A DNA stretch of 64,000 nt, taken from positions 1 to 64,000 of IMG/VR virus record IMGVR_UViG_3300028558_000001; one strand, given 5' to 3'. A program made the translations under genes and the position numbers. The notes below the pieces were generated by a model, which searched no databases, was not told where the DNA came from, and saw only the letters and a program-made list of their open reading frames with translations. Source of the stretch: a virus. Position 1 is the first letter of the stretch. Every line of letters begins with the position of its first letter. Below, piece by piece: positions 16,970 to 45,832 of this stretch.

Positions 16970-16998
16970 TTGACATGGTATAAAATATTTGGTATAAT
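16970..16998 (+). promoter_or_regulatory. Perfect sigma70 promoter, antisense to local genes
   Basis: TTGACA-N17-TATAAT with no credible + strand gene downstream. Confidence 0.85.
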
Positions 16999-22100: not shown

Positions 22101-25100
22101 AAGAGCAGCTTCACGGCTTTCTGCTACACAGACAAACGCCCCAACCCATCCACAATCATACACATAAAGAAACATTTCTTTCATAACTATTTCCTTTTTG
22201 ACTCAATCAAGATAACAGTCGTCATCATCAGGAACGTACATCAATGAATGTTCCTTTGCAAGCCCTTTCGCGTACTCACATGCACTTTTTCTGTCAGGGA
22301 AAGCCTTCCTCGACGCCACGGCATAGTCATCTAGTTCATATGAAAGAGCATCCAAAATCTCTACGACATATAGTTTCTTTCTATCTCCAGATGGGAAAAC
22401 AATATGATATGTCGATTCATTCCAACTCATGGAGCAATCCCTTCATCATAAGTATATTCATACTCTTCTTCTATGGGGTCATAATAACCAAGCATATCCT
22501 TTGCCCAATCCAGATATTCTTTTGAAGGTTCACCTGTTTCTAGATAAAATTCAGTAACACGGCGGCTTTCAAATATCCATTCCTTCATGAATAGTTTAAG
22601 TGGAGTCCCTTTAAGGATGCGAGCAACCTGATCCATAACCCATGCTTTATGGTGCCCTCCTTCAATCTGACCATATCTTCTAATAAAGTACATAGCAAAG
22701 TCTGCTGTGCTATACTCTTTATACTTAGTAGAATCTTCAATATTTATTTCAGTTGCACCTAAATACCCATTCATTTATTTTCTCCATTAAGAGCATTAAC
22801 AACATTAGTGGCCGTATCTTCATCAAAGACGGCCTTGAGAGGATGCGGGAATAGAGAAGTCAGACAATTACCATCTTGAATAGTATAATCCTCGGAAGTA
22901 ATATAATAGAACACTTGCTTGGTTCCATTATCTATAACTTCTCTAGAAGAATATGGACCTTCACATTCAAGTTGATAAGGCATGTTATTGATTTGAATCG
23001 TTTTCATAATTCATTCCTTAGTGGTGGATGATGCCAAAGATTATTTGGAGAATGAGCATGAGTCCAGAAATAAAATCCGCTCCCATAATCAAATCTCCTT
23101 TTTCTTATAGAGTTTATAATGATCCCCTGATGAGTCTCGTTCATGACCAGAAGATACAAACTGTGAATAGTATTTTTTATCTTTTGAATAAACATCATCA
23201 TAACCATATGGTTCAAATCCATAAAGTTTATAGTCTCTATTCAAAATCTTATCCCCTGCGGAAGACCAATAAGGATAGTAAGATTCTATATACTCATAAC
23301 CTTCCGGTACTCCATCATTAGGATCAGGAAACAGTTCCTTCTCCAGTCTTTCAATCTCTTCATTGACCTGAGAATAGTTCTCGTCAAAGAATTTTTGAGA
23401 GACGAACTGACCAGCAATAAACCGATGCTTATACCGGATCAGATCAAACAGATCACGATCAATACTCATTCCAAGCTGTGCGGCTGCATAAGCATAATTC
23501 TCAGCAATACCGGCCATCTTGTTATTAGCCCCATGTCTCACCATAGAACCATCTTCATTTTCATGAGGAAGAGTAACAATGGAGTCAAAGGCCATGAGGC
23601 CCATCTTAAACATTTCCTCAATCTTGTTAACCGCATCATTAACAAAAAGGTTATAAACCTTCTTCTGTTCCTTGGACGGAAAGAATCGTTCAATACAATT
23701 GCTCATTCTGTTTCTCCTTTAATTAGATAATAGATTCCACGGAAAGAAAATGAATAGTAGAAGATGAGCAATGATAAAGGATGGTAAGTACTTTCCCGCT
23801 TCCCATTCCATCATAACCAATAGAGTAGTGATCCATGCAACGCCAATAGAAAAAGCAAGCGCCAACGAACCAGTAAACTTTAACATAAAAATAACAGAAT
23901 CAAAATAAGTCATTAGTCAATTTCTCCAATTGATTTCTTATATGCAGCGAGACATTCGGAAGGCCAATGAGAAGGGAGAAGATCAGTCATTCCCCAAATC
24001 TCATTACACGCTTTCCATGTAGGTTCATCCATTACCTTCCATGCCTCATGATCCGACAAATCAAAGTGCCTTCCATTAAGGGCAATCTGACCAATTTCAT
24101 GGAGCATTCCCCGAAGCTTCTTAATCTCCCATTGATCCCTAAAGTATTCAGGAACTGAATCAAACTCCATCATATTCTCATGAACCTTCCTAAGTTCCGC
24201 CACAACATTTTCAGGAGTCGCATTTGGCCCTAGAGATACATGAAGTTTTTTCGCGCCGATTTCCTTACGATATTCCTCTACTGCTTCATAAATCTTTTCA
24301 GTATTCATTCCGAATCCTTCCTTTCAAAATATTTCCCTCGTTCCTTGCATGGAGAAATTGCATTCCTAGAACAAAAAGGCGCATATGTTTCATCAATGCC
24401 AGTAACTAAATTAATTGATCCCCTCCTAAGTTCTGGATGATCACAATAACGACGACCATAATAATATCCACTTTCTTCTTCCCTATGATACTTGCATTCA
24501 GGGCAAGGCGGATTAATTTTCCTTTTAAAGAATTTAAATAAATTCATTCCGAGTCCCCTTCATGAGCTAAGTCCATGAGAGACGTAATACAATCAATATC
24601 ATCATAACTCATATAAATCCGAAACTGCTTGTCATTATCATCAATCTCAGAGACAAGTACAATATCACCTTCCTCGGACGTATAATATCGTGTAATAAAA
24701 CAATCAGAAGTAAGAACTTTATCCTTCCCTTGATCCCCATGCGTAGTAAATTTAGTTTGAATAATTTTCATAATTAGATTCCCACCATGTCAATAATAGT
24801 ATCCTCGGAAATTTCATATTCATCAAATGAAGACCAATGCGGAGGCCATTTCCTTAGATCAGCAAAGGTATCAGTTGGGTCATAATATTTCTTGACATAC
24901 TTCTCAACTGCCTCAGATGGAGAAGAAGCAAAACAAATAAATGCTCCATCATATCCCTCATCACGTACATAAAGTTTCATTTAATCAATCCATTCAATAG
25001 GAGAAAGAACATAGACAATACCAATAAACGAGAAGATACCGATTGCCCCATATCCCCCATAATGAGTAAGGATATAGTCAATACCCATAATAATAGAAGC

Positions 25101-25241
25101 AGCGATAAAAAGAGCGAGGAAAGAGAGACATAGAATAACAAGGAAAATACCTAGTCCCATTAGCTTAAAGACAATGGTTTCAAGATAAGTCTTCTTCCGA
25201 GTTAGATTAGAAAGAAACATATAACGTTCAGTGAGGGTCAT
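19133..25241 (-). other. Block of about 22 tightly packed small hypothetical genes (19133-19450, 19456-19668, 19670-19975, 19972-20457, 20444-20707, 20686-20934, 20944-21204, 21204-21446, 21446-21799, 21772-21984, 21981-22184, 22203-22430, 22427-22774, 22771-23007, 23089-23706, 23719-23913, 23913-24308, 24305-24547, 24544-24771, 24774-24980, 24981-25241)
   Basis: Abutting or overlapping start/stop codons and SD sequences, all on the minus strand; three ORFs are hydrophobic membrane peptides. Confidence 0.75.
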
Positions 25242-25305
25242 AGTGAATCTCCTTAGTATTTTTCATAACGAATCCTTTTTGTCCTTATTTCCACGTACTC
25301 GCCCT

Positions 25306-25334
25306 TTTATAAGGGGATACGAAATCCGAGTCAA
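25306..25334 (-). promoter_or_regulatory. Sigma70-type promoter driving the leftward block
   Basis: TTGACT-N17-TATAAA; the 15-mer GAAATCCGAGTCAAG recurs at about 25672-25686. Confidence 0.75.
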
Positions 25335-25502
25335 GCGAAAAATTTCATCTTAAATTTCCCATATATCAGGTTCCAGAGAATAGAGAGCAATCAGACATTT
25401 CCATTCTCCCGAGCCAAGCATTTTTTCAAATACCCAAAACTCATTAGTCCATTCAAACAGTTCATATATCATATACATTATAGTGCGCGTCCTTTGCCTT
25501 GA

Positions 25503-25588
25503 TACTTCGTAGGTACTTCGTAGGTACTTCGTAGGTACTTCGTAGGTACTTCGTAGGTACTTCGTAGGTACTTCGTAGGTACTTCGTA
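25503..25588. repeat. 11-bp tandem repeat (TACTTCGTAGG x7.8)
   Basis: Seven exact copies plus 9 nt. Confidence 0.98.
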
Positions 25589-25604
25589 CTTTTGATCATA
25601 AAAA

Positions 25605-25744
25605 TTTGGGCGAAAAAATTTTTAGGCGGTAGCCCTCAGTGGGTATGACGTGGCTTTTTATTATACATAGAGAAATCCGAGTCAAGTACTTTTCGGTTAA
25701 TTTTTTGGGCGGAAAAATTTTAGGCGGTAGCCCTCAGTGGGTAT
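25605..25744. repeat. ~41-bp direct repeat, two copies (25605-25646 and 25704-25744)
   Basis: TTTGGGCG(A/G)AAAAATTTT(T)AGGCGGTAGCCCTCAGTGGGTAT. Confidence 0.9.
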
Positions 25745-25846
25745 AGTCCTCTAAATTTTTGTGAGAAATATTTTGAGTGACCTATGGTCGAGTAAAAAAT
25801 TATCGAAAATATTTTGATCGCTTTTCGGAACCACCCCCACGATCAT

Positions 25847-26545
25847 GATTCGCGCCAAATGTCAATGGTCGAAAGTCACTTATCCACAACTTTTTCAGCC
25901 TCAAAAAGCCGCCTCCCAAAAACCGACGACTCGCGATTGCCTAACCCATTGATTCGACTAGCTTTTCGACTCGGATTCATGCTCTCCAGCTAGGCTTTTT
26001 CGCCCTGTTTTTTACCAGCTAGAAAGCCCTTATGCGACTAAAGGCTATGCCCATTTCCTGCCCTAGGCGTCGTCTCACAAGGACAAGCCCTGACTCGCCC
26101 TAGGCTATCCCCTGACGCTGTTTAGACGGGGTTCTAGACTCGAATCTGGCTTGCCCTGACATGCCCCTATCGTGGCGAGTCCTATCGTCAGGGCATGATC
26201 TAACGCCCCTGACATGGGCTATCCCCTGACTCTCTTTCAAAGCGATTTGGAGCGGCGAGCAAGGGCGACTTTGCCCCTACTCGGCTACTATGCTAGCGGC
26301 CTATGTATTCAAGCCCTGTCCTTGCCCTTCTAATGGCGTTCTAGAGCCTATCTAACGAGTCATCCTTGACCTAGTTCTACCATGCCAATGGAATCGCCTA
26401 TCGAATCCCTTTCAAAGCCATTTCAAACGGGGCGAATCCCTATCGCTTATGCCATAACCTGTTGTTTTCTAATGGGCTTCGAATGCGCGATTCCCTTCCT
26501 ATTGCCTCGTTTTTGCCTGAATCACGATCTCCTAACCCATTGTTT
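25847..26545. other. Origin-like / protein-binding region (16 GANTC, one DnaA box, three IHF-like sites, six CCCTGAC)
   Basis: TTATCCACA 25880-25888; TAACCCATTGATT 25942-25954 and one-mismatch sites 26455-26467 and 26533-26545. Confidence 0.5.
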
Positions 26546-26607
26546 TCTAACGTGTTTTTTTAGGGCTTTGGATCATACCGAATTCGGTTATTCTAATTTC
26601 AGTTCAA

Positions 26608-27300
26608 CGGCCCCGGCGGAACGCCCCGGCCACAAGCCAAGAGGCAAATGGAAGCTAACGCGCTAAGCGCCTTGTCACTCGCAAGTAAAAACAGAGTCGC
26701 AACCTGACCTAGCAGGCAATTGCGTTAGTATTGTGCGATATAGCATAAGCACAATTTGCAACCATATGTTCTAGCGGGCTATCCCTAGCTAAACACTTGA
26801 GAGGATAGACGGCGAGTGCAGTATATCGCATTGCGCCTAGTGGCTAAGACCACAAGTCGAAAGTATCATTTCGCGGGAATAGCGCCACAAGAGTCCCTTA
26901 TAATTCGCTGATATTAGGCGAAAGGGATTGAAAGACTTAAGACGCTGAAATGGGTTAGCTAATCGCCAAAATGGCCTAAGCATTGCTTAGAATAGGGTTA
27001 GTTAATACGTGAGAAAGCTTAAAGTCTTTCCAGTATCAAGAAATGTATCTCTTGCGCGTTGCCATACGTGAATAAGCTTTGTTGTGAAACAATCCTTATA
27101 TGGCAAGCTAACTCATAAGCTTCTAATTTGTGAGTCTCCAAACTACTAACTATGCCCTAGCAAAGCCTAGCCTAATTGCCATATGGCCGGATAATCGCAA
27201 GATTGTTTGGTTATGAGGCAAGATAAAGCAAAGCTTTGCTAGGCTTTTCCTATGCTTAGCTTTCATTAGCTTGGCATTGGCAAAGCAAACTAAGCTTTGG
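26608..27300 (+). ncRNA. Candidate large structured RNA or long structured leader (~700 nt)
   Basis: No credible ORF; more than 12 nested helices with G-U pairs favouring the + strand; family not recognised. Confidence 0.6.
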
Positions 27301-27316
27301 AAATAGGAGAAAAACA

Positions 27317-27469
27317 ATGCGAAACTTTCTGAATAGCCTGCGATTGGCAATTTTCGGCAAATCTCCTCTTATTGGCGAAATAATGCCTGAGCGGATTTAC
27401 TTAGCCGTTACGCCGCGTCAGGAGCGGATTATTTGCGGCCGCTGGAATTCAGACCGATATTTCCGATAG
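27317..27469 (+). CDS. Small hypothetical protein (50 aa, not in the ORF track)
   Basis: TAGGAGAAAAACA-ATG; MRNFLNSLRLAIFGKSP... Confidence 0.7.
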   Translation: MRNFLNSLRLAIFGKSPLIGEIMPERIYLAVTPRQERIICGRWNSDRYFR

Positions 27470-27621
27470 GAAATTAGATAAGTTCTAGCATTGGCAAGAA
27501 TTAAACTTGCCAATTGTAGAGCCTATTTAGACGACTAATAAATAGTCGCTTATTGCTCTAATATAGACACTTAACGAAATTAGGAAAACATATCGTTTCC
27601 TAATTGATAGGAGCAAATAAC

Positions 27622-27783
27622 ATGAAAAATGCGAGCAAAGCTAAGAAGGTTTCGCGCTCCTCTGCTTCCACTAAGAAGCAAAAGCCCCTGCCCTTCTTTG
27701 GCTTTCAAGATGAAATGGAAGAGATTCTTTCGGTTCATCTGGAAACGCGAGACTTTAACAAGTTTTGCGAGAATTATTATTGA
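27622..27783 (+). CDS. Small hypothetical protein (53 aa, basic N-half and acidic C-half; not in the ORF track)
   Basis: TAGGAG SD; MKNASKAKKVSRSS...ENYY; stop lies in the first junction hairpin. Confidence 0.75.
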   Translation: MKNASKAKKVSRSSASTKKQKPLPFFGFQDEMEEILSVHLETRDFNKFCENYY

Positions 27784-27846
27784 TTTAGTTCTAGGCAATG
27801 AAAGACTTGCCTAGGCATGAACCAATAAGACAATGGAGAAAAGAAA

Positions 27847-30800
27847 ATGTATATCTGCGAAGTGATAGACTTGGGCGACTTTTGCGCTCTCAAGTCTTCG
27901 GCGGTCTTTTTCTCTGAATCCAAAGCTTATACTTGGGGCGAAGAGAAAAAGAAAGAATTCCAAGATAAAGAGGAAGATGAATACTTCAAGAATTGTTTTG
28001 AAGTGAAAGTCTATCCTATCAACTGCCCTGAAATTGATTAGTTTAAACCTAGGCATTAGTAGCGCAAGCTGAATAGTGCCTAGTATTGAACTAATAAGTT
28101 CTAAGAGGAGAAAAGAAATGGAAAGCAAAGCGACTAAGGAAATGAACATCCTTTACATGCTTGCGGCAATTTTCTTCTTGTCGGTCATGCTGATTTGCAT
28201 GGTCAATGAGGAAGATCGGTCGGCTTGTGAGAAAATATATTCTCACGATACTTGCGTTGCACTAATCGACAGGTAAAGATTAGTTTAGTTCTAGGCATAT
28301 GATTGAATATGCCTAGGCATGAACTAATAAGTTCTAAGAGGAGAAAGTAAAATGAGCAATTTTCGTCAGACTTCTAAGCTTACCAAAGAACAATCTTTGG
28401 CTTTGCTTAAGGTTTATCATCGCGATTTGATGCGCGTTGCATCAAATTGTTCATATGAAGTCGAAAAGAAAGTAAATCTTGGGATTGATATGAAGACTCC
28501 AAGATGGAAAAGCTTTCTTGATTGTCGGCGGAAAGTTTCCCTTGGTTATGATTGCATCATGATACAGGTTGGAAACTACTGGCTTGGCATTGAAAAGGAC
28601 GGTTATTCGCATTCGTAAGTTTAAACCTAGGCAATGGTCAAACGTTGCCTAGTATTGAACTTATAATGAAAGTAAAAGGAGAAAAGAAAATGAAAGATGC
28701 AAATAAAACTGTTGCCGTTGCAATAGAGCCGGAAGATTTTCGGCGGCTTTCTGCAATTGCAATAAGGTTATATGACGGGAAAACTATGTCATATGACGAC
28801 CGGCGAGAATTAGCGGCACAAATCTCGGCTATTCTCGGAAGAGCGGAAGAATTACAGGCTGGCGATGTTATCTTATAACTGATTAGTTTGGTCATAGGCT
28901 AGGATAAAACTTAGCCTATGTATGAACTAATAAGTAAAGGAGAAATAAAATGGCAATGTCTATGCAGAATGCTTGGCAAGTTCTTAGTTCTATTGGTCTT
29001 TCTGGTAAGGAAGATTGGTATGAATTAAGTATTTCAAAGAAAAGCGAAGTATTTGAACTAGCAAAGAAGTGGAATTATACTTATCAATCGCCTTTAGGGC
29101 GGTCAGTTGGTTATTCTTTCTACCTTCATTTGCAGCGTAAACAAGGAAGGAAAGATTAGTCTGATTTGTTTTGCCTAATCGTGGCGCAAGCTAAAGGTTA
29201 GGCAAGGCAAACTAGATTAGAACTCTAGTTTAATAAGCAACGGAGAAAGCAAATGGCTATCGAAATCAAGCATCGTCCGACCTATAAGAATGTTTTTCAT
29301 AACTATTGGTCGGCGGAAACGATTGTTAAGTTTGAAAACAATCGGGAAATGCGTATTTCGACGCATAAAACATCTTCCGGCCAAATAGTTTCGTCGGCAA
29401 ATGTTGGAATTAATGAAAATGGCGGATGGCTTTGGGCGCCATTTTCTGACTTTGGAAAAAGGTTGCTTGTCACAAAAGGAAAAGCGACTGAAAAATATGT
29501 GACAAACCAACATAATGAAGCAATCAAAGATTTGGATACTTTGATTGCTCAAGCAAGAGCTTTCTATAAAAGCGAATAAGTCTGATTTAACTTGCTCAAC
29601 TAGGTTTAGGCTTAGTTGAGCAATGTAAACTAGATTTGTTTCTAGTGAATATAAAGGAGAAAAGAAATGGCAACTCGTTATCTTGTTGCGAATATTGAAA
29701 ACATTCGCAAAGTCAAGGCTGAGTGTACAGCCGCAAGGTTTAAATGGGCTTCTGAAAAGAAGTCTGTACTTTGTGACTTGTTTACGGCGTCTGCAATTAT
29801 TGCAGTATATGACGCCTTGAACGATGAAAACAAAGCAAAGGTTGAAAGAATGGTAGCAGCCTCACCAATGCTGTTTAGCAAGGTTGCTGGGTTTTGCTTT
29901 GAACATGTGAAGTAAAAGTATTGGTTTGGTCAATAGCATTTAGAAATAGATGCTATTGCATGAACTAATAGTAAAACAAAGGAGAAATACAATGGATGCG
30001 AAGCATTTGTGCGATTATATCGTCAATACTGGCGAGTTTTATCATATCCATGTTGATATGGCGAAAGGTAAAGCTTCCATTATTGAATGGCGCAATCGTG
30101 TTTTTGTTGGTCTTTCCAAGTATAGGATAGAATTTCATGAATATCATGAAGGTCTATCAACGTCCAACATTGAAAAATGCACTGATATGCTCAAAGAATA
30201 CTATGAAGAGCATATCAAAGAGTTGTAATTGTTAGTTTAAACCTAGGCATTAGAAATAGTGCCTAGTATTGAACTAATAAGGTTCAACATGGAGAAAAGA
30301 AATGGCAAATTATAACTTCATCGTTTACTTCACGCCTTATAAGTTTGAAGGTGACGATACTAATTGTTACTATAATGCCATAGGTTATGGATTCAAATGG
30401 AGATATATTCATAATATTGATCCTTACGAATATTATTATGATATAGTCTTCCGGCCTTCTGAAAGTATATTCATGGTCCCTAAAGCAATAGGCGATTGGG
30501 ATTGTGAATAAAAATTAGTTTAAGCCTAGCCATTAGAAATAGTGGCTAGTAGTGAACTAATAATGTTCAATAAAGGAGAAAGAAAATGTGCAAGGTTTAC
30601 TCTTTTCCTGCTTTGCAGACTCGCAAGGTTGTTAACGAATGCTTGCATATGCAAATGAAGGAACGCGCAACCTATGAAGAAATCGCGTTTATTCTTCTTA
30701 GGTTAAATGATACTGGCGAAAAGGTTTCGCTAGATGACTTCATTGCATGTATTGAATACATGCGGGAAGCAACTAAGACTGTTCATTAGTTTAGTTCTAG

Positions 30801-31440
30801 GCATATCTAAACAATATGCCTAGGCATGAACTAATAAACAATGGAGAAAAGAAAATGCGTTATGTTCAATATTATACTTCTGAAAATATGGAAGCTTTGG
30901 CAACTGATGGTTATTGTCCATTAGATGCAAGGTTTTCATTGTATAATGCAATGGCGCAAGCGCGGGAACATGGTTTGAAACTGAATAAAGACCTGAATAA
31001 AGGTTTCACTCACTTTCAAATTAGAAGGGCAGGAGGAAATAATATATTTTCCTCGTGGAGACCAGAAACGAAACTAATGAGACTGTAACTAGTCTTTATA
31101 AGTAGCATTAGAAATAGTGCTACTCAATAAACACTAGTAAAACAAAGGAGAAAAGAAAATGCTTTATCATCTTCACTTGTCGCGACATGTAAAAGGTATG
31201 GTTAAAGGGCCGGTTCATGCGGTTCCGCGCGGTATTGGATACGTTTGCGACTATGACGAAAATGGGGATGCGGTATGGCCGGATAATAAAGCGGTAAGGG
31301 AATGCTTACCAGCTTGTTATAGAAAGGCTTTCGATAGGTCATCCCCGTCAATGTATTCTAACTCTAAAGGAATACATTTCACGCTGTACGATACGCGGAA
31401 CAAGTATATTAATACAATATATTGTATTCCGAATATCTGA
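27847..31440 (+). other. Twelve small single-gene units between hairpins (27847-28041, 28118-28276, 28352-28618, 28690-28878, 28950-29159, 29253-29579, 29667-29915, 29992-30228, 30302-30511, 30586-30789, 30855-31088, 31159-31440); hypothetical proteins
   Basis: Each has a GGAGAAA SD; starts corrected to the ATG after the SD. Confidence 0.85.
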
Positions 31441-31510
31441 TTAGTTTAGTGAAGTACATTGGCAACAGTGTACTTCCATGAACTAATATAGTTCACAATG
31501 GAGAGAGAAA

Positions 31511-33046
31511 ATGAAAAGAGTTTGGTCGCCACAACAGAAGGCGTTTCTTGAATTCATCATGAACTCTACTAGTTCATGTGTTCTGATCGCTGTTGCTGGC
31601 GCTGGAAAGACTACGGTTATTCTTGCCGCTTGTGAGGATATTGCTGGTTCTTCTGCAATTCTTGCCTTTTCTAAGGCTATTGCCGAAGAGCTTAAAGCAA
31701 AACTCATTGCGATGGGAATTGACTGGAAAAAGGCTTTGGCCGGAACGGTTCATTCCTTTGGTTTTTCTGCGCTTCGCAAAGCTTTCCCGAATGTCAAGGT
31801 TGATAACTATAAGGTTGCCAATATCATTGGTGACTTTGTTAAGCTTGGCATATTCACAGAAGCGACGGCGGCCTATGCAGGAACTATTGGCAAGATTGTA
31901 AGCATGGCAAAGCAACGCGCTATTGGTGTGCTGGCTCGGCTCGATGATGTTAATCAATACTATGACATTATCGAGCATTTCGACGTTCTTGCTAATGACA
32001 ACGATTATCCTGAGCATGATGTTCTGGAAAATATTGTTCAGGCTGCTATCCGTGTACTGAAATCTTCGAATAGTCAGACTTCTATCGTCGATTATGACGA
32101 TATGGTTTACTTGCCGTTGATCCATCGTTGCCGGTTTTGGCAGTATGACAATGTATTCGTTGATGAGGCGCAAGATACTAATCCTGCGCGTCGTGCATTG
32201 GTTGCTGCATTGGTCAAGAAAGGCGGTCGAGTTATTGCTGTTGGTGATCCTTCGCAAGCAATCTTCGGATTTACTGGCGCGGATGCTGACTCGCTTGACT
32301 TGATTGCTAAAGACTTCAATGCTGAAAGACTTCCTCTGACGGTAACGTATCGTTGCCCGAAGGCGGTTGTTGCTTTCGCCCATCAATGGGTTGACCATAT
32401 TCAGGCACATGAAAGTGCGCCCGAAGGTTCTGTTACTGAAACCACTAAAGAAGCTTTCCTAGAGCGGAAAGATTTGGATGGCGAAGCGGCTGTACTTTGT
32501 AGAAATACAAAGCCTATTGTCGCCCTTGCCTTCGAATTGATCCGCCGCAAGGTCGCTTGCAAGGTGGAAGGGCGCGACATTGGTAACGGGCTAGTAAAGC
32601 TTGCTACTAAATGGTCGCGTATCAAAACATTGTCTGCCCTTCATGATAAGCTTACTGATTATTATGAAAGGGAGAAAGCTAAGCTTCTGCCTAAGAAGCA
32701 GGAGAACAAGCTTCAAGACATTGAAGACAGGGTTGAAACCTTGAAGGTTATTATTGAAGAGTGCCGCTCAAAGAATCAGGACAAGGTTTCCGATCTTGTC
32801 GTGGCAATTGAAGGTATCTTTGATGATAAAGTGAAAGGTATCCTTGTTCTTTCTACCATTCACAAGTCGAAAGGACGTGAATGGAAGCGAGTGTTCTGGC
32901 TTGACCGCAAGAATACTTGCCCTTCTAAATGGGCTAGGCAAGCGTGGCAAGTAGAACAGGAAAATAACCTGTGCTATGTTGCTGCTACTCGCTCAATGTC
33001 GGAACTGATTGAAATCATTGTTCCGGCCCTGCCCAAGGCCAAGTAA
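31511..33046 (+). CDS. UvrD/Rep-like superfamily 1 helicase
   Basis: AGAGKTT, VDEAQD, VGDPSQAI, TYRCP, TIHKSKGREW, YVAATR. Confidence 0.92.
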   Translation: MKRVWSPQQKAFLEFIMNSTSSCVLIAVAGAGKTTVILAACEDIAGSSAILAFSKAIAEELKAKLIAMGIDWKKALAGTVHSFGFSALRKAFPNVKVDNYKVANIIGDFVKLGIFTEATAAYAGTIGKIVSMAKQRAIGVLARLDDVNQYYDIIEHFDVLANDNDYPEHDVLENIVQAAIRVLKSSNSQTSIVDYDDMVYLPLIHRCRFWQYDNVFVDEAQDTNPARRALVAALVKKGGRVIAVGDPSQAIFGFTGADADSLDLIAKDFNAERLPLTVTYRCPKAVVAFAHQWVDHIQAHESAPEGSVTETTKEAFLERKDLDGEAAVLCRNTKPIVALAFELIRRKVACKVEGRDIGNGLVKLATKWSRIKTLSALHDKLTDYYEREKAKLLPKKQENKLQDIEDRVETLKVIIEECRSKNQDKVSDLVVAIEGIFDDKVKGILVLSTIHKSKGREWKRVFWLDRKNTCPSKWARQAWQVEQENNLCYVAATRSMSELIEIIVPALPKAK

Positions 33047-33112
33047 TATTGGTTTAGTCATTACCATAGGTCAAACTGTGGTAATGCATGAACTAATATA
33101 ATGGAGGGTACA

Positions 33113-35167
33113 ATGCAGAAAGCAAACTTTCTTGATAAGGTCGCTTCTCTCTATCGTTGTGGTAATCGTTCTGACCATGATGAGAAATTGAATAATGCGC
33201 CAGATGAGACTTGGACTAAGCCTGAAATGGCTGGAAAGGCTTGTTGTGCATTGCTTGATGAAATGCTTCAAGCAATGATTAAGTGCAATGCCCTGACTTC
33301 GGAAGATGTTCAGGAAATGTATGATAATCTATGATTAGTTAATAGTTGCTCATTAGAAATAGTGAGCAATCATGAACTAATGTAGTTCACAGTGGAGAAA
33401 ACAAATGAGCATGTCTTTTAATGAAGAGTCTGGCTATTACATTGCTAATCATAACAATGGTTATGCAATCTTTAGTTATGAAACCGAAGAAATGGTTTTC
33501 TTCCATGAAAACTTTCGGAAGGTTCTGACTCGCAAGAACAAACTCATGAAGAAGGTCAAGTAAAATGGTTCTTACTTCTGAAATCGTGAGAGACTATATA
33601 GTATCACTCTATGGTAATATCGAAATCTGTGATATTATTCATGGTGACGATCAAGAACCTAATCGAGACTTCTGGCAAGTCTTCTGTAATATCAATAATA
33701 CAGGTACTCGACTCGTTGTTTGGGTTGAAACCTCAGAAGACGGAGAGAAGTATATTGAGGTCGCTTGATTAGTTTAAGCCTAGCCATTAGTAGCGCAAGC
33801 TGTATAGTGGCTAGTAGTGAACTAATAAAACTAAGGAGAAAGCAAATGAATATTGTCAAGCAAACGGCAGAAGGTAAGACTGTCAAGCAGCTTCCTACTT
33901 ACTTTGAAGTTGTCGGCAATGACATTTATCTTGGTTCTCACAAGATCGGTACTCTCAATACTGAAATGTGGTCAACCATGACTGATCTTGTTGTTGAGAT
34001 GCTTGAGAATGATACTACTCAGCTTGAGAAAGATCATGAAGAAGCTTTGAAAGAAGCAGAAGATGATTATGCTCAGAAGCTTGAAGAGTGGGAAGATAAA
34101 GTAGAAGACCTGAAAGAAGAAGTTTCAGGTCTTGAGGCTCTCAATAGAGAGCAAGAGGAAATTCTGAATAGACTTGAACTTGCCGAAGGTGTACTTGGCA
34201 GGATCAAGGAACTTGAAGAAGAAAACGATGAATGGCGCGAGAAAGTCTCTGAGTTGTCACGTAAAGTCAGAGAGTTGACTCCTAAGCCCAAGAGAAACTA
34301 CAATAGGCGAGTTGCCTGATTAGTTAATAGTTGCTCATTAGAAATAGTGAGCAATCATGAACTAATAGCAATGAAAAGGAGAAAGCAAATGCGTCCGTAT
34401 AAAATGACGGATAACAAAGGTCTACAGCCTGATATGACGGTTGATCTTTGGGCTAAACGTGACAATACTACATCAGGCCGGGGCAAATGGCGCTTGGCGT
34501 GGTGGAAACGTGGTAAGGATAGCTTTGTATATGCCGAAGGCGAATGCTCAGCTAACTATTTTAATACTGCCAAAGATGCATTGGCATATGGATTGCGAAG
34601 GTATGATGAAAAAGGAAAGATTTGGCCTCGCAATGAATACTGATTAGACAGTTTTATTGTGTCAACTAGTTTAGTAAAAAGACTAGTTGACATAAGTAAA
34701 CCTATCTGATATGAGGATTGGTTTAGTAAGGAGAAAACAATGATCCAAGTTTATAGAGTGACAATAACCGTCCCTGATAATCATCCTGATAATAAGGATG
34801 GTTTCGCCCTCCGTCGTCAGTTTATTATCGGTCAGCCGGTTATAGACATTATCAGGGATAAGGTGGAAGCAAAGGGTTATGAATTCAGTTGGGCTATTGA
34901 CCATATCATGACGCCGACTGAAATCATGAACGAGATTGCCAAGGAGTTTGAACGATGAATTTCAGGGTCTATTACCCTGATCTTGGCTTCTATCTTTCTT
35001 CTGCATATCATACACTAGATGATGCTGTACAAGCAGGGAAGAAAATTAGAAACGATTACATCGTGAAGCACATGGGCGGCGAGTCAATTGCCTTTCATGG
35101 AAAATTCGTCGGTTTGGTTGTGGTTCCTGAAAAAAGTTCCAAAACCATGTTGACAAAGCCAAAATGA
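33113..35167 (+). other. Small hypothetical genes (33113-33334, 33405-33563, 33565-33768, 34389-34643, 34740-34958, 34955-35167)
   Basis: SD-preceded ORFs; 33405-33563 (52 aa) is not in the ORF track. Confidence 0.75.
33846..34319 (+). CDS. Acidic coiled-coil protein with basic tail
   Basis: Long E-rich heptads; ends PKPKRNYNRRVA. Confidence 0.8.
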   Translation: MNIVKQTAEGKTVKQLPTYFEVVGNDIYLGSHKIGTLNTEMWSTMTDLVVEMLENDTTQLEKDHEEALKEAEDDYAQKLEEWEDKVEDLKEEVSGLEALNREQEEILNRLELAEGVLGRIKELEEENDEWREKVSELSRKVRELTPKPKRNYNRRVA

Positions 35168-35178
35168 GTCTTTAGGTT
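35150..35178 (+). promoter_or_regulatory. Sigma70-type promoter
   Basis: TTGACA-N17-TAGGTT with GAGTC in the spacer and an A-rich upstream tract. Confidence 0.5.
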
Positions 35179-35239
35179 GTGGTCATGCTCAAGAAAAGGA
35201 GCGACGGCGAAAACGGAATGAAAAAAAGTAGCGATTGAG

Positions 35240-35302
35240 TGGTTTTTTATTGTTGCATTATCTCTAGTACCGTGCTACTGATAATGCAACAGCATGAAAC
35301 CA
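35240..35302 (+). repeat. Divergent copy of the two-tier hairpin
   Basis: TGGTTT/AAACCA lower stem; TGTTGCATTATC/GATAATGCAACA upper stem. Confidence 0.7.
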
Positions 35303-35367
35303 AACAAAAGACGGTTTCAAGTGTGGTAAGTGAAGTTAACAATTAACCCAAACTAGGAGAATGTAAC

Positions 35368-36069
35368 ATGACCAATACCAACGAAAACGCCGCTGTTGTC
35401 GCCGCTCCTGTTTCCAAGGGCCGTGGCAATCCGACCGCGATCAAGTATGGTGCGATCACTTTCAAGTCGATCCGTGCCGCTTCGAACTTCGTCGCCAAGA
35501 AGACTGGCGAGAACCCGAAACTGGTTTACTCCCGCGTTTATCAGCGCGTGAAGGCCGGTCATCCGGTTTCCGAAGCCCTTCGTGCTGCGCCCCTCAAGAA
35601 GGGCAAGGCTGGCATGACTGTTACCATTGGCGCGAAGACTTTCAATTCGCTCATGGATGCTCTCAAGCACAAGTTCAAGAAGGCGACTGCCGAAGAGTTG
35701 TCGGTTCTTTATACTCGCACTCTCGCGCGTATGAAGTCCGGTCTGTCCTTCGATGAGGCGATTGTTTCGCGTGACCTTCGTGGCAAGGCTAACTGCAACG
35801 AAATCACGGTCAATGAAGTGACCTATCCTTCGCTCATTGACGCTATCCGCGCTCTCTACACTGGCTTGACTACCAAGAATCAGGCGGCGGTCTACAATCG
35901 CTTCTCCACTGGCCTCAAGAGCGGCAAGAGCTTCATGGAAATCCTTGAGACTCCTGTTCGCGTCTATCAGAAGTCCAATACTCCGCTCTCCGCTCAGGAG
36001 TCGGTTGAGGCGCTTCTGGAAATGTATCCTGACGCTGATGAAGATGTTGACAACTCTGCTGCGGCCTGA
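35368..36069 (+). CDS. Putative DNA-binding protein with three tandem repeats
   Basis: Three ~60-aa units (T-F/Y-x-S-I/L-x-x-A ... K-x-G-x-x-x-x-E-A/I-L/I); GC-rich codon usage. Confidence 0.6.
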   Translation: MTNTNENAAVVAAPVSKGRGNPTAIKYGAITFKSIRAASNFVAKKTGENPKLVYSRVYQRVKAGHPVSEALRAAPLKKGKAGMTVTIGAKTFNSLMDALKHKFKKATAEELSVLYTRTLARMKSGLSFDEAIVSRDLRGKANCNEITVNEVTYPSLIDAIRALYTGLTTKNQAAVYNRFSTGLKSGKSFMEILETPVRVYQKSNTPLSAQESVEALLEMYPDADEDVDNSAAA

Positions 36070-36078
36070 TACGGAATA

Positions 36079-36106
36079 AGAGGGAAGGAAATCACTCCTT
36101 CCCTCT
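36079..36106 (+). terminator. Strong hairpin after 35368..36069 (terminator or stability element)
   Basis: AGAGGGAAGGA-AATCAC-TCCTTCCCTCT; no U-tract. Confidence 0.5.
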
Positions 36107-36283
36107 GCCCCTTGCAATAATTTCTATGAAAGGAATTTCATGATGAGCAAGGAATTTATGGGAATTGAGATTTTAAATGCCTTGAAAGCCATTACTGAAT
36201 TAATTTTTGGTAGTGGCTTTCTTTTACCTTGTTTTCTATGATTGCATATGCTAGATCATATGTGATTATACAAACCAAGTTAT

Positions 36284-36375
36284 GGGGAAGGCTAGTAGCC
36301 GATTGACAGGTAGCAACTGTACATTACGCTCTCGCTAAGCAGATGAATTTGTTGGTGCAATTCCAACGTTCCCCT
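36284..36375 (+). ncRNA. tRNA-like element (non-canonical)
   Basis: GGGGAA/TTCCCC acceptor-like stem; GTTGG-TGCAATT-CCAAC T-arm; ACAG-GTAGCAA-CTGT arm; no canonical D-arm. Confidence 0.35.
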
Positions 36376-36813
36376 TCTCTTTCTAATGGGTGATCCAATG
36401 TCTATGGATATGAGCAAGCTGAATAAGAATATCGTGAATGATGTAATTGCGTTTCACGATTGGGATAACGAGGAGTCCGGCGAAAGGGCTGCTCGTTATT
36501 TCCTCCTTGCCTCTCCAATTGACGTGCTGCTGGATTATCTGAATTATAATGGTATTCTTGGATATGATACCGATATTAAGAATATCCTGTCCTCTGGTAT
36601 CCATAAGGGAGAATGAAATGTTGGTATTTGACAATCTATACGGTCAGCCACTTAATTGTATCTGTTATATTTCTCCAACTAAACTTGGATATGAGATACA
36701 GCATAGAGGATTTAATGACTATTATAATCAGGAGGTAACAGAAGGAGATTGGCTATATTATCCTTCTGAAAGCCTCATGATGGTTCCCAAGGAAGTTGGT
36801 GATTGGGATTGTT

Positions 36814-36871
36814 AATCAGTTGACAGGGTAGCTATAGGAGCATATCTTATAGCTACCTCAGTGAACTTGTT
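36814..36871 (+). repeat. Divergent two-tier hairpin containing a sigma70-like promoter
   Basis: GGGTAGCTATAGGA/TCTTATAGCTACCT stem; TTGACA(36820)-N17-TATCTT. Confidence 0.65.
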
Positions 36872-36899
36872 ATCATAGAATACTCAAAGGAGAATAAAC

Positions 36900-37445
36900 A
36901 TGGCTATTCCTACCATTACCGTCAAGGTTCCTCACTCGCAGTATGATGGTTCTGTTATTGAACCTGATTCTTTTGCTTATGACATTACCGCTAAGAAGTG
37001 GAAGCATAAGCTTACCATCGCAAGGGAAGTGATTGAAAGCTATACCAAGTCTGTCATCACTCAGGACAACTTGGTTTCTCTTGGTGTTCCCCTGCTCCAA
37101 GAGAAGAATTTCGTGACTCATGATGTTGAGCGGGCTAATCTCCTGCGGGCCTCTGAGATTGCCCCGGAACAGCTTGTGGATGGCAGCATTAGCGGTATCC
37201 GTACTGTCTGCTCCAATGAGCTTACCAAGCTTCCTGAGACTTCTTCTGATACCGATTCCGAATCCTCTGAGAAGAAGGGCAGGGGACGCCGCTCGCGCTA
37301 TCCCTACGCCACCTGTGCGATTGGTGAAAGCTTTGAGATTGACGCTGGCTCTCCTGCGATCACTCTCAATCACAGCCTCATTGGTAATCGTGCCTTTCAG
37401 GTGGAAATCAAGAACGGTCGCTTCCTCATCACTCGCACCAAATAG
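36900..37445 (+). CDS. Hypothetical protein, possible DNA-binding C-terminal domain
   Basis: GRGRRSRYPYATCAIGESFEI motif; strong SD. Confidence 0.6.
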   Translation: MAIPTITVKVPHSQYDGSVIEPDSFAYDITAKKWKHKLTIAREVIESYTKSVITQDNLVSLGVPLLQEKNFVTHDVERANLLRASEIAPEQLVDGSISGIRTVCSNELTKLPETSSDTDSESSEKKGRGRRSRYPYATCAIGESFEIDAGSPAITLNHSLIGNRAFQVEIKNGRFLITRTK

Positions 37446-39383
37446 GAGCCTATTATGGCAACTAATTCTCTTGAATATGGTATCGTTACTTCTGCAACAC
37501 CAGAAATCAGGTTGTTTGATAGAAACGACGATAATGTTCATATGAACCCAATGCCCGGTAAAGGTTTCAGGTTCTATCGTAACTCTCCTGAGACTTGCGC
37601 CTTGCAAATCAGGGGAGAAAAGCGTTACGCTCATATCTCACTAAACGTTCCTGAACTGGAACTGTTGAGGGAAGCAATCAATAATGAGATTGATTATCTT
37701 CGTCCTCCTATGGGAACCAAACGATAAGGAGTTAATCATGAAGTACATGACTCGCAATATCTTCTCTAACAAACAATGGAATTGTCAAGCGGTAATCATG
37801 GAGGTTATGGATTCTGTTAGTCCATATGTTGTCATGATCCATCCTATGTATGGTCCCAACAGGATTCAACAGGAGCCTAGGGAATTCAAAACAGAGGAAG
37901 AGGCAATTGAATTTGCCAAGAAGGTGATTGGCGTTAACTAAACTTTGGAGGTTTGACTAATATCTAATTAGGATATGGTTGTTGGGATATAATGATCGTC
38001 AGAATAAAGAGTGTTTGATATAAAGGTTGACTAACCAGAATCCATATGGTTTTATAGCTATATGGATTCGAGTGAGTTTACTTCTTATGAAAGGAAATCA
38101 AAATGGACAAGGACATTAAGACGCTTGAGCAAGAGATTGCGACTCAAGAAGCCTTCTTGTTTAACCTCAAGAAGATTAAGAAAGAGAAAGAGGATGCAAT
38201 TCGAGAGAATGTCAAGCCTATCTTTAAATGGGTTGCTGTGAGGCGTCATCCTCGCCAGCATGATTCCTTTGACTTCATGTATGATACTTCAATTGTAAAG
38301 TATTACATATATCGTGAGTGCATGAACAAGGATGAAATGAGGGCTGCTAAGATTTCTGATTGGAATTGGTCTACTGGTGGCATGGATTACCTGTTTAATA
38401 CTGGTAATGGAATGCTAATCACTGGTATTTCTGGGGGGACTCTTATCTTTAATGCAGAAGAAAAGGATCGTCATCTTTGGCTAGAGGTATCGGAATTCCT
38501 TTGCAAGAATCCTGATGGCGGTGATCTTACTCATATCTTTGTGGGAGAATGAAACTATGGCCGACTTCATTCCAAAAAATATTCCTGCATCTGTAAAGAA
38601 AAGGCTCGTTGATTGGAGTGATGAGCGGAGAACAGAGGGCAGATACTTTCTAGCAACTGCCTATGGATGGGCATTTGAACCATCAGATAATGAAGATATT
38701 GCTCTTCATTGTAAATCATTTGGCACTAGAAAAGAAGCATTTGACTATGTTATGAAATATGTTAAGCCCTGCTCATGCGGAAGATGCATTCGTGGAAAGG
38801 AATGAAACTAATGATTAAGTATGTACAGATCAATGACTTTATCTATCAAGTTATTCTTGATGGGCAAGTCATTGGCAAGATCAATAGGAAAAATGAGGGA
38901 TGGCAATATACTCCGACAGGATCGAAGATAAGCGGGGGTTATTTTCCTACTCTTCGATCCTGTAAACAATCATTGGGGTGTTAACATGACATATACTGAT
39001 AGATTCCTTGGTCAAGATCATACAGTAGTTCAATATATAATTGAAGGACAATATAACCTAAACTGTTCAGATTCCTATGCTGGTAAATGGTCTTATCTAG
39101 GAGATAATATCTTCCCTGAACATTTTGGGGAACGCCATGCAAAGTATGGTGAAAAATGGGTTGATGTATGCCCATTTTTCCTTGCATATAAAGATGGGTG
39201 GCAAGTAACAGGCCATTCGGGATATGCTAAAGAAGAACTGGCGAAGGAAGCATTCTTGCGCTTTATCCAGAATTACCCGCGTGATGGATATTACATAAAT
39301 TTCCGCTTGACAAAGAGAATCGTGACGGTTAAAAACGAGACTGTAGATTCACTGTATTGACGAAATAATTTTGATAAGGAGTT

Positions 39384-40862
39384 ATGGCTAGCATGTTCAA
39401 GTTAATTGATTATGATACTAAAGAAGATTATTTAGATTCATCGGACAATCTTTTCTTATTCGATACTGGAGCCGAAGCCTCTAAGAAGGCCAAGGAAGTA
39501 GAATTTTGGTTTGGTATTAAAGTAGTTGTCAAACCATATATTGTTCCCACGGATGAATGGAAAGATCGTGAACAAGGGCGATTAGATTCGGGTGAGTATA
39601 CTAAGGTCATCCCCGAACTACAAAAGCATTGCTTACCAGAACATTTTGTTCATGTCTCTAAAAAGAACCCAAGTCTCATTGCATATACTGCTAATCCTGA
39701 CAAGGGCGTGGCAGATAAACAGACTCAATCTTCTGTCATGGGCTATCTAGAGCGTTTTGCTCCTACGTTATCTTATAAAGAACGAGAAGAAATTCATCAT
39801 ACTCATATGGATATGTATTGTGCCGTTGAATTAAAGTGGGCGCGTACTCCTGATGAAATTGAGTATGTATATACTCATTATAGTGAAGATGCTTGTTCTG
39901 TATCAGAATCATGTATGAGATATGCTGCTGATGAATTCACGTCTCAATTCCATCCTGTTCGGGTCTATGGCGACTCTGATCTTTCAGTTGCTTATCTAAC
40001 AGATGAATTTGGTTATACTGTTGCTAGGGCGTTAGTATGGGAGGAGAAATTAATCTATTCTCGCGTCTACGGTGGGAATGATGATGGTAATAAACTTCAT
40101 CATCTTCTTAGGAAGAAGGGCTTTAAGAAGTCCTGTGGTTATTATGATGATGGTGAAGAAGATGAGTATACATCTGACAAATCTTTTGATGGCGCATTGC
40201 TTCCTGCCTTCCTTTATGAAGGCGAGTTAGATAATCAGGTTGATGCTCATGTCATGCCATATATTGATGAGGGATCATTCGTTGATCTAATTAAAGTTGA
40301 TGGGAAGAAGAAGTTCAAACTCAATGCTAATTCTTCTTCTGAAAAGTATTATTGCCAGCATACTAATGGTTTAACTCATGATTGTGAAGAATTAGGCGAA
40401 AGGTATCAATGTTATCATTGCACTGATAGATATACCACTACCGATAGTATGCACTATGTTAAGGTAGATCATTGGAGCACAGAATTATTCTGTACCTACT
40501 GTTATAATAACAGAACCTTTTTCTGTGAGGGAACACAAAGGGACTATTATTCTGATAGTTTTGACTGTGTTATCGTTGATGGTAATATGTATGAAGAGTC
40601 ATATGCCGAAAAGCACTTCCGTAAGTGTGAAGACTGCGATGAGTATTCTAAAGAACCATTAATCACAGTAGAGAATAAAGATGACAAAGTAGAAATTTGT
40701 CATGATTGTTTTTGTAACATTTCTTCTACTCTATTCTATGATAGGAAAGATCATCGTCTATACTCAAATGATCTGAGGGAAGAATTTTCAGCAACGGGTG
40801 AAGTTATTCCTGTTAGGGGTATTGACATTACGGTTGCAACGTGTTTCCATGCTCATACGTAA
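39384..40862 (+). CDS. Conserved phage protein with Cys-rich C-terminus, paralog of 42750..43832
   Basis: SCMRY, HPVRVYGDSD, ARALVW..YSRVYG, MPYIDE; several CxxC pairs. Confidence 0.7.
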   Translation: MASMFKLIDYDTKEDYLDSSDNLFLFDTGAEASKKAKEVEFWFGIKVVVKPYIVPTDEWKDREQGRLDSGEYTKVIPELQKHCLPEHFVHVSKKNPSLIAYTANPDKGVADKQTQSSVMGYLERFAPTLSYKEREEIHHTHMDMYCAVELKWARTPDEIEYVYTHYSEDACSVSESCMRYAADEFTSQFHPVRVYGDSDLSVAYLTDEFGYTVARALVWEEKLIYSRVYGGNDDGNKLHHLLRKKGFKKSCGYYDDGEEDEYTSDKSFDGALLPAFLYEGELDNQVDAHVMPYIDEGSFVDLIKVDGKKKFKLNANSSSEKYYCQHTNGLTHDCEELGERYQCYHCTDRYTTTDSMHYVKVDHWSTELFCTYCYNNRTFFCEGTQRDYYSDSFDCVIVDGNMYEESYAEKHFRKCEDCDEYSKEPLITVENKDDKVEICHDCFCNISSTLFYDRKDHRLYSNDLREEFSATGEVIPVRGIDITVATCFHAHT

Positions 40863-40888
40863 TCGTTAATCAAAAGGAAATAGTTTTA

Positions 40889-41989
40889 ATGTCATTTTCA
40901 CCTGTTCCCACTGTTAGAAAGACATATGATTTGTCTACAATTGATGTACAATCATTGTTAGAAATGATTATCATTCGTCGCCCTGCTCGTTATGAGGGCG
41001 ACGAAGAACTGATTGAACGTTTTCTTGACCCTATTGACGGGATGCAAGAAGATGAGCATGGCAATCGTATTCTAAAGATTGGCGATGCTCCTGTCATGTG
41101 GTCATGCCATACTGATACGGTTCATTCATCTAAGAGCTTCGACAAGTATCAGCGAATTCGTTTTGATAAGGGAATCATTTCCCTTGCGAAGGATGAGAAG
41201 TCGAATTGTTTAGGAGCCGATTGTACTGCTGGTATCTGGATCATGCTCGAAATGATTAAGGGCGGCGTAGAGGGCTTGTATATCTTTCATAGGGATGAGG
41301 AAGTCGGCGGTTATGGCTCTAGCTATGTCGCCAAGCATCATCTTGATTTGATTAAAGATATTAAGTATGCGATTGCCTTTGATAGAAAAGGAAACAGTTC
41401 TATCATCACGCATCAGGCAATGGAACGCTGTGCATCAGATGCATTTGCGGAGTCACTGTCCAAGCTTCTACCTGTTGGTTATCTTAAGGATGATGGAGGA
41501 ACGTTTACTGATACAGCTAACTATACTTCAATCATTCCAGAATGTACCAATATTTCAGTTGGGTATGATGATGCTCATTCATCAAAAGAGTCATTGAATG
41601 TATATGATCTTTTGAGACTTAGGGAAGCAATGCTTAAGTTTGATCATACACAACTTGTTTGTGAGCGTGATCCATCTATCACTGAATATTCAGAAGACTT
41701 CATGCGATATTCTACAAGAACTTCTGCATATCGTTCTTCTTATGGTTTAGATGATTGGGAAGATCGTGATGCTATTTGGAGAAAGCCAGAAGGAAAAAAG
41801 GTTTTCGATCTGACTCCTCATATTGAGGGTATTGATTATGAAGATTATGATCCAGATGAATATCCAAATATGGCATGTAGGACTCTTAAGGAATTCATTA
41901 CCACCTATCCAGATGTTGCTGCTGATTATCTAGAACAACAAGGATATGCGGTAGAGGATTTCTATGAACAATTTCCTTGGCTCGCTTAG
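40889..41989 (+). CDS. M20/M28-family zinc peptidase-like protein
   Basis: CHTDTVH, LGADCTAG, DEEVGG, AFDRKG, FTD, NISVGY..AH. Confidence 0.85.
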   Translation: MSFSPVPTVRKTYDLSTIDVQSLLEMIIIRRPARYEGDEELIERFLDPIDGMQEDEHGNRILKIGDAPVMWSCHTDTVHSSKSFDKYQRIRFDKGIISLAKDEKSNCLGADCTAGIWIMLEMIKGGVEGLYIFHRDEEVGGYGSSYVAKHHLDLIKDIKYAIAFDRKGNSSIITHQAMERCASDAFAESLSKLLPVGYLKDDGGTFTDTANYTSIIPECTNISVGYDDAHSSKESLNVYDLLRLREAMLKFDHTQLVCERDPSITEYSEDFMRYSTRTSAYRSSYGLDDWEDRDAIWRKPEGKKVFDLTPHIEGIDYEDYDPDEYPNMACRTLKEFITTYPDVAADYLEQQGYAVEDFYEQFPWLA

Positions 41990-42000
41990 GACATTACGGA

Positions 42001-42030
42001 TTGACAGGGAGGATGCAGTCTAGTTAGGAT
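42001..42030 (+). promoter_or_regulatory. Possible sigma70 promoter followed by a structured leader
   Basis: TTGACA-N18-TAGGAT; AACTGAC/GTCAGTT stem downstream. Confidence 0.4.
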
Positions 42031-42149
42031 ACGAAATGGGCGGCGATTCCAACTGACGGATAGCCTTAAAAGAATGTCAAGTCAGTTATGGTTTATCCCC
42101 CACGGCCATAGATGGACATGAAGCCCAAACAAAATAGAGGGGTTAGAGC

Positions 42150-42737
42150 AATGATTTGTTTTGCTTCTGCTGACTTTATTACCAAGTTCAATAAAAGAAA
42201 AGGAGTTAGGACATATTGTAATCCTTATTGTTATGATTGCAGAAACAATTGTTTCTCAATTGAAGGACCAAGCCTGTTCATGATCATTCATGATATTATT
42301 CTTTTTCTTGATGAAGAAAATAGGAATTATTCTTGTAGATCAGCACAATATGCTTTTGAAGATTTGATTGGTTTTAGGCTACATGCAAGTGAAAACAAAG
42401 TTATCTTGTATTGGCCTATGATACCGTTTTGTGAAGAAAAAAGAGGAGTATATAACTAGATATGTCAAACATGTATACTAAATCCGGTCAGTTAAGCGCC
42501 GCTGCTCTCAGGAAGGGCTATCAGCATAAAGCCGATGTAAATTATAAAGATCATAAGTTTTCAACAGTTCTTGAATTTGTTGATCACTATAATATGTATC
42601 GCGTCAGACTTGTTCAGAATGATTATAATAACCTTAATTCATGGCATTTTTATTCTGTAAGTGAAACTCGAAAACAGTTTGAAACCGTTTTGGAAGCAGT
42701 TGTTGATGCTGCTGAAAAAGAATATTTACTTGTATAA
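42150..42737 (+). other. Two hypothetical genes (42150-42459, 42462-42737)
   Basis: Consecutive ORFs. Confidence 0.65.
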
Positions 42738-42749
42738 TTGGAGTGAAAT

Positions 42750-43832: not shown

Positions 43833-43875
43833 CTTTCCTCATTGCATTCGGAAAGAACTTCGTTGACTCTGTTCT
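43830..43875 (-). repeat. 46-nt structured element, copy B
   Basis: Reverse complement 44/46 identical to 17073..17118. Confidence 0.92.
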
Positions 43876-43891
43876 AGTTATTTGCTATAAA
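43863..43891 (+). promoter_or_regulatory. Sigma70-type promoter (sense)
   Basis: TTGACT-N17-TATAAA with TGn extension. Confidence 0.65.
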
Positions 43892-43939
43892 ACTTAGTAG
43901 GTGACTAGAAACAGTTACTATCTTTCTGAAGACATATGG

Positions 43940-43968
43940 ATTATAACAAGTTTTTAAAAGTGTGTCAA
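43940..43968 (-). promoter_or_regulatory. Perfect sigma70 promoter, antisense to local genes
   Basis: TTGACA-N17-TATAAT on the minus strand. Confidence 0.85.
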
Positions 43969-43996
43969 GTGTAAAAATCAATTATAGGAGAGAAAA

Positions 43997-44656: not shown

Positions 44657-44704
44657 TCCTTCAAAAATAATTTGGGCCATAATCGCTTTTTTTGAAAATA
44701 AGTG

Positions 44705-44732
44705 TTGACGCGAAATTGGATTCATATATAGT
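44705..44732 (+). promoter_or_regulatory. Sigma70-type promoter
   Basis: TTGACG-N16-TATAGT with GATTC in the spacer; hairpin GGGG...CCCC downstream. Confidence 0.7.
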
Positions 44733-44797
44733 GAGGACATGGGGAACGAGATACCCCTACGAAATTCTAGTCAAAACTAACTCAGGAGAAATTGATT

Positions 44798-45769: not shown

Positions 45770-45771
45770 AG

Positions 45772-45819: not shown

Positions 45820-45832
45820 ATAGGAGGATATT

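Follow-up and report, generated by a model that had tools for sequence, protein, structure and literature searches.

The window analyzed here covers the first 64 kb of an IMG/VR virus record that is 176,660 bp long and has direct terminal repeats. It raises the question of what function, if any, is served by a 693-nt stretch without genes (26608 to 27300) that sits where the minus-strand and plus-strand gene blocks of this genome diverge. The source is an uncultured T4-like soil phage whose genes include a T4-type large terminase, a tail-sheath stabiliser, an RNA ligase, and NAD-salvage genes; the terminase is ∼50% identical to those of Sinorhizobium phages phiM12 and phiN3 and of cyanomyophages. 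Genes between 13.0 and 25.2 kb are on the minus strand, those between 27.3 and 57.1 kb form a co-oriented plus-strand block of about 30 kb, and the two are separated by a 2.07-kb zone (25242 to 27316) without credible open reading frames (ORFs), of which the stretch is the right-hand third. A preliminary description had placed the stretch at the head of the rightward block, and this is where it lies: it directly precedes the first Shine-Dalgarno (SD) sequence and ATG of the plus-strand genes, a position that fits a leader, and the first rightward gene (27317 to 27469, plus strand) encodes 50 aa. The G+C content of the region is 45 to 51%, compared to 37% for the genome, and the stretch falls within the most G+C-rich kilobase of the genome; structured RNAs of A+T-rich genomes are often G+C-rich. 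The interpretation that we favor, and hold tentatively, is that the stretch may serve the rightward early operon as a cis-acting, hairpin-rich untranslated 5′ leader.

The description of the stretch as ORF-free is borne out, with open frames inside it spanning no more than 36 codons. On the plus strand, only a 94-aa ORF (26382 to 26666) overlaps it, over its first 59 nt, and the small ORFs that overlap the stretch have no Pfam family. Recoding with genetic code 4 (TGA as W) or with TAG as Q, as compared with code 11, opens no convincing ORF in the stretch, and no interrupted ORF was found around it. Its stop-codon density is ordinary (0.071, compared to a genome mean of 0.067).

The dense base-pairing proposed for the stretch clearly exceeds that of dinucleotide shuffles, with the 693-nt plus strand folding at −239.5 kcal/mol compared to −192.8 ± 6.1 kcal/mol (z −7.7); the minus strand has a z of −4.1. 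The individual helices named on the plus strand are all present where they had been placed, and RNAfold recovers most of them with pair probabilities of 0.65 to 1.0; between 26635 and 26845, several are alternatives to the minimum free energy helices. The excess folding is concentrated in the 3′ 408 nt (26892 to 27299), which reach −139.4 kcal/mol on the plus strand (z −9.2) and −117.8 kcal/mol on the minus strand (z −4.7). The 5′ 300 nt alone (26608 to 26907) have a z of −2.0, which is the background for 300-nt windows of this genome (mean z −1.7, sd 2, with the extremes in the hairpin-rich early region), and 300-nt windows from 26908 onward have z values of −4 to −8. The G+C-rich left neighbor (25850 to 26607) has little structure (z −1.5 and −2.4 on the two strands). 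Of the large structured RNA of about 700 nt originally envisaged, the structure and its assignment to the plus strand stand, but a single ornate 700-nt RNA does not; only the 3′ ∼400 nt stand out, as a string of local hairpins. The predicted features are as follows.

26609 to 26631, plus strand: D1, a G+C-rich hairpin, GGCC..GGCG-GAA-CGCC..GGCC (pair probability 0.95 to 0.99).
26635 to 26845, plus strand: D2, a multibranched G+C-rich domain closed by AGCCA/TGGCT, its fold ambiguous, with several alternative helices.
26630 to 26891, plus strand: three copies of CCACAAG (26630, 26850, and 26885), each within a linker where domains meet, with 0.01 copies expected from the genome 7-mer frequency.
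26892 to 26929, plus strand: D3, a two-tier hairpin, AGTCCCTT/AAGGGATT around TCGCT/GGCGA (probability 0.88 to 0.99).
26930 to 27030, plus strand: D4, a long stem (GAAAGACTT/AAGTCTTTC), an 11-bp stem (GTTAGCTAATC/GGTTAGTTAAT), and two apical hairpins in a three-way junction (probability 0.91 to 1.0).
27037 to 27135, plus strand: D5 to D7, three hairpins predicted by RNAfold.
27154 to 27244, plus strand: D8, a 91-nt three-tier hairpin with a GCAA tetraloop (probability 0.99 to 1.0).
27252 to 27299, plus strand: D9 and D10, two short hairpins just 5′ of the ribosome-binding site, predicted by RNAfold.
27306 to 27319, plus strand: SD sequence GGAG (27306) and ATG (27317) of the first rightward gene, read from the sequence; the SD is of the GGAGAAA type, as in other early genes.

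The hairpin chain from 26892 to 27299 comprises eight stable, mostly local domains and ends 6 nt 5′ of the SD sequence of the first gene. Within it, the 3′ side of D4 bears ATACGTGAGAAAGCTT, D6 (TTGCCATA/TATGGCAA) has a GUGA loop and includes a second ATACGTGAATAAGCTT, and D7 is formed by ACTCATAAG/TTTGTGAGT. The element ATACGTGA, reported as occurring twice, has its two copies at 27005 and 27064, and it extends to a 16-nt motif, ATACGTGA-NN-AAGCTT, that is present twice, 59 nt apart. Other words recur in the stretch as well, including AAGCTT (five times, within 283 nt), CTAGC (five times), and GCAAAGC (three times).

Strand preference differs among the domains. D1, a possible 5′-terminal stem-loop, shows no difference in stability between the strands (z about −1), and D2 has a z of −3.9 on the plus strand compared to −2.2 on the minus strand. 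The plus strand folds better in D3 (−13.8 compared to −9.9), D7 (−6.3 compared to −1.5), and D4 (−33.0 compared to −20.8 kcal/mol; z −4.6 compared to −2.4), where there are four G·U pairs. The most stable element of the stretch is D8, at −45.5 kcal/mol on the plus strand compared to −34.8 kcal/mol on the minus strand (z −8.8 and −5.7), and its apical helix is a perfect 15 bp with six G·U pairs. DNA palindromes would fold equally on both strands and would lack this asymmetry, so any selection here is expected to act on a plus-strand RNA. The asymmetry in folding energy, together with the many G·U pairs, lends thermodynamic support to the predicted plus-strand RNA structure.

These comparisons bear on the alternative that the stretch has no RNA function, but is decaying or horizontally acquired noncoding DNA, with hairpins that arose by local duplication of palindromic words or that are protein-binding sites at the DNA level. 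The repetition of words, the background z of the 5′ part, and a G+C content far above the phage mean, as also seen in the helicase gene and in other pieces that were probably acquired, are all compatible with this, as is the status of the stretch as an orphan in every collection searched. Set against it, the plus strand gains 21.6 kcal/mol over the 408 nt through G·U pairs (16 of 134 pairs), which palindromic words would not produce, and 700 nt of useless DNA would be unusual in a tightly packed phage genome. We therefore regard an absence of RNA function as quite unlikely.

Could the stretch belong to a known RNA family? It had been placed in the size class of ROOL/GOLLD, and we searched Rfam 15 with cmscan, using the 64-kb window at the gathering score and the segments 25000 to 28000 and 24300 to 28820 at E ≤ 10. 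Neither family, nor any other, matches within 26608 to 27300 even at E ≤ 10. The same holds at this threshold for OLE, HEARO, raiA and other large bacterial noncoding RNAs, 6S RNA, and riboswitches, and also for group I and II introns, RNase P, and tmRNA, to which the preliminary description could likewise find no match. No tRNA or tmRNA (the latter by ARAGORN) was found in the 64-kb window, and no reverse transcriptase gene (RVT_1) in the genome. Within the reach of the Rfam models, the stretch belongs to none of these families.

Between the early genes downstream lies a recurring, stable two-tier hairpin with an internal loop (ATTAGTTTA..CTAGGCA..TGCCTAG..TGAACTAAT). A covariance model built from nine copies of this junction hairpin identifies 16 to 17 such hairpins on the plus strand between early genes from 27477 to 45820. 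We considered whether the leader might be a gene-less array of the same hairpins, but the model finds none in 26608 to 27300 at E ≤ 10 with filters off. The junction hairpins at 28036 and 28620 give sub-threshold matches to the Rfam family ‘freshwater-2’ (21 bits, compared to a cut-off of 49.9). The stretch is distinct both from the catalogued RNA families and from the junction hairpins of the phage itself, and it belongs to no described family.

ROOL, GOLLD, and OLE are large ornate RNAs whose assemblies have been seen by cryo-EM (PMC12286853). The stretch resembles them in size class, in forming a G+C-rich intergenic island, in its occurrence in a phage, and in its GNRA loops; it differs in having no Rfam match and no homologues, and in its predicted architecture, a chain of local hairpins instead of an ornate long-range fold. 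GOLLD also frequently has tRNA neighbors, unlike the tRNA-free window here. A free-standing stable noncoding RNA of ∼400 to 650 nt is nonetheless one alternative to a leader, either ending at D8 and the CUUUUCC that follows or cut from the leader, and acting in trans, for instance by serving a host or phage protein as decoy or scaffold. Its size would be near that of large bacterial and phage noncoding RNAs, the GCAA and GUGA loops are of the GNRA type, and the repeated single-stranded motifs at boundaries (the three CCACAAG and the two 16-nt motifs) resemble binding sites. Its 3′ end would be formed by the most stable element and a short U-run, a possible weak terminator as modeled, but the run has only four U after C, and a consensus scan, which recognizes simple short stems only, reports no terminator at D8 and CTTTTCC. 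Nor were long-range or tertiary motifs found, and a canonical 11-nt tetraloop receptor is absent, its components CCUAAG and UAUGG being present in the stretch but not facing each other. With neither a family nor a paralogue in the genome, a free-standing RNA appears unlikely.

In organization, the closest parallel is the start of the T7 early transcript, where a noncoding leader precedes small early genes with RNase III hairpins between them; here too, a noncoding head of several hundred nucleotides precedes small genes that are each separated by a stable hairpin. The T7 leader differs in having three strong sigma-70 promoters and little structure, whereas no promoter is recognized here and nothing is more structured than the leader. 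Cutting by RNase III, as at the T7 hairpins, would be hypothetical for the junction hairpins of this phage. The HK022 put antiterminator, whose two ∼35-nt stem-loops work on RNA polymerase, offers a second parallel: it too is a folded RNA that stands first in an early operon, as the stretch is predicted to do, and it acts in cis, as the leader would. A likeness to the put stem-loops themselves would be hypothetical.

If the stretch is a leader, then plus-strand transcription would start near 26600, and the hairpin chain could act in cis to keep host nucleases from the 5′ portion of the long early transcript; stable hairpins in series at the 5′ end are a standard means of protecting long transcripts. 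D8 and its U-run (27154 to 27250) might set the extent to which transcription and translation pass into the first genes, and a putative pairing of CTCC with the SD sequence might also gate entry into them. This pairing, between CTCC (27136 to 27139) and GGAG (27306), is predicted with a probability of 0.74, with only 4 bp; both it and pairings to the start codon are short and by estimate not significant. Similarly, 26859 to 26874 is predicted to pair with the first codons (27319 to 27329) with a probability of 0.8, yet this is estimated to be no rarer than chance over all positions. Stable hairpins also lie between the downstream genes, which suggests that RNA structure plays a large part in the early transcript of this phage.

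The evidence for a leader is the absence of coding capacity under three genetic codes, the excess folding specific to the plus strand, and the high pair probabilities. Against it, a scan for sigma-70-like promoters between 24900 and 28100 yields none that is convincing, there is no homologue, the 5′ 300 nt are at background, and short self-complementary words could arise by local duplication without selection for RNA. Perfect promoters of the form TTGACA-N17-TGnTATAAT are present only twice from 13 to 53 kb, at 16970 to 16998 (plus strand) and 43968 to 43940 (minus strand); both oppose the local gene direction, and both aim at the 26- to 27-kb zone.

The location suggests a further alternative, that the stretch encodes a structured pre-primer or R-loop RNA associated with a replication origin located within the gene-free 2 kb. 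ColE1 RNA II is a pre-primer and the T4 oriF and oriG transcripts are origin transcripts, and a predicted transcript of the stretch would resemble these in being long, hairpin-rich, and noncoding, beside origin-like repeats and a GC-skew minimum; it is unlike them in directly preceding a translated operon. The divergence of the gene blocks coincides with the global minimum of the cumulative GC skew of the whole 176.7-kb genome (26 to 27 kb, with the maximum near 109 to 110 kb), but the skew is confounded with gene orientation, which it also tracks, and is no marker of an origin alone. The adjoining 1.3 kb contains nine 11-bp tandem repeats, two 42-nt repeats, and repeated CCCTGAC, although the transcript would run away from this repeat zone. 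T4-type origins can also do without a large folded RNA, and to our knowledge none requires one. Taken together, we consider an origin-associated RNA improbable.

The repeats to the left of the stretch are of several kinds. At 25492 to 25599, an 11-bp unit, TACTTCGTAGG, is repeated nine times head to tail, one helical turn apart; this spacing is characteristic of iterons and of binding arrays for partition proteins or regulators, and the repeats may be of either kind. Two ∼42-nt copies of TTTGGGCG.AAAAATTTTTAGGCGGTAGCCCTCAGTGGGTAT (25605 to 25646 and 25704 to 25744) are 95 to 97% identical and 98 to 99 nt apart. The segment from 25850 to 26545 has the highest G+C content anywhere in the genome (up to 57%) and is not notably folded on either strand; it contains two copies of GGCTATCCCCTGAC, about six of CCCTGAC, and two of CTAACCCATTG.TTT, and has no match in 401 alphaproteobacterial genomes. 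Lastly, a near-palindrome centred on GAATTC, ATACCGAATTCGGTTAT (26573 to 26590), lies ∼20 nt 5′ of D1 between TTGGAT and TCTAAT hexamers and appears operator-like.

Relatives of the stretch were sought by several routes. There is no paralogue in the 176.7-kb genome, and a blastn search in ‘distant’ mode of GenBank phages and plasmids gave no match. Pattern scans of IMG/VR returned 44 matches for ATACGTGARWAAGCTT, 26 for the junction-hairpin arm, and at least 119 for three CCACAAG copies with gaps, all attributable to chance (single occurrences or repeat-protein matches), as blastn or nhmmer found no extended similarity; scans of JGI metagenomes for the junction hairpin and for the double 16-nt motif returned none for either. 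Twelve IMG/VR contigs reached through the terminase (TerL) and the helicase have only short chance matches, and a search of 401 alphaproteobacterial genomes with 1.5 kb of DNA likewise gave chance matches only. Following synteny from the UvrD helicase, none of the contigs of its relatives matches the RNA, and the small neighboring genes (131, 205, and 108 aa) have few or no relatives, on contigs that are short or non-syntenic. The synteny route failed because the genes flanking the stretch are ORFans or have relatives on tiny contigs only. Part or all of the stretch is contained in 12 rhizosphere metagenome DNA runs, among which no RNA run is listed; the four runs compared are 100% identical to the stretch where covered, with no variants.

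A more ambitious proposal is that 26892 to 27299, perhaps with 26608 to 26891, constitutes a discrete functional phage RNA of 400 to 700 nt and of an undescribed class, in which repeated single-stranded motifs (CCACAAG and ATACGTGA-NN-AAGCTT) would link hairpin modules and recruit a host or phage factor, through which the RNA would control the onset of the early program or of replication; we think it unlikely that all of this is so. Long folded leaders and large noncoding RNAs of lytic phages are little studied, and this one, if real, would be an example from the T4 superfamily placed where the early program, and possibly replication, begins. It would also illustrate that an RNA of this kind can be an orphan confined to one lineage and escape comparative methods. 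The ∼400-nt target, with its strand and predicted domains defined, is suited to structure probing and transcript mapping.

Finally, we note that the UvrD-type helicase gene (31511 to 33046), 4 kb downstream of the stretch, is G+C-richer than the phage, and that its closest relatives (55 to 70%) are in unrelated, mostly high-G+C phages and prophages (46 to 62%, mostly ∼60%). Some contigs carrying these relatives have alphaproteobacterial-type neighbor genes (GcrA, GapR, and a DnaA C-terminal domain), a hint that genes were exchanged with alphaproteobacterial phages and, by extension, that the host may be an alphaproteobacterium.
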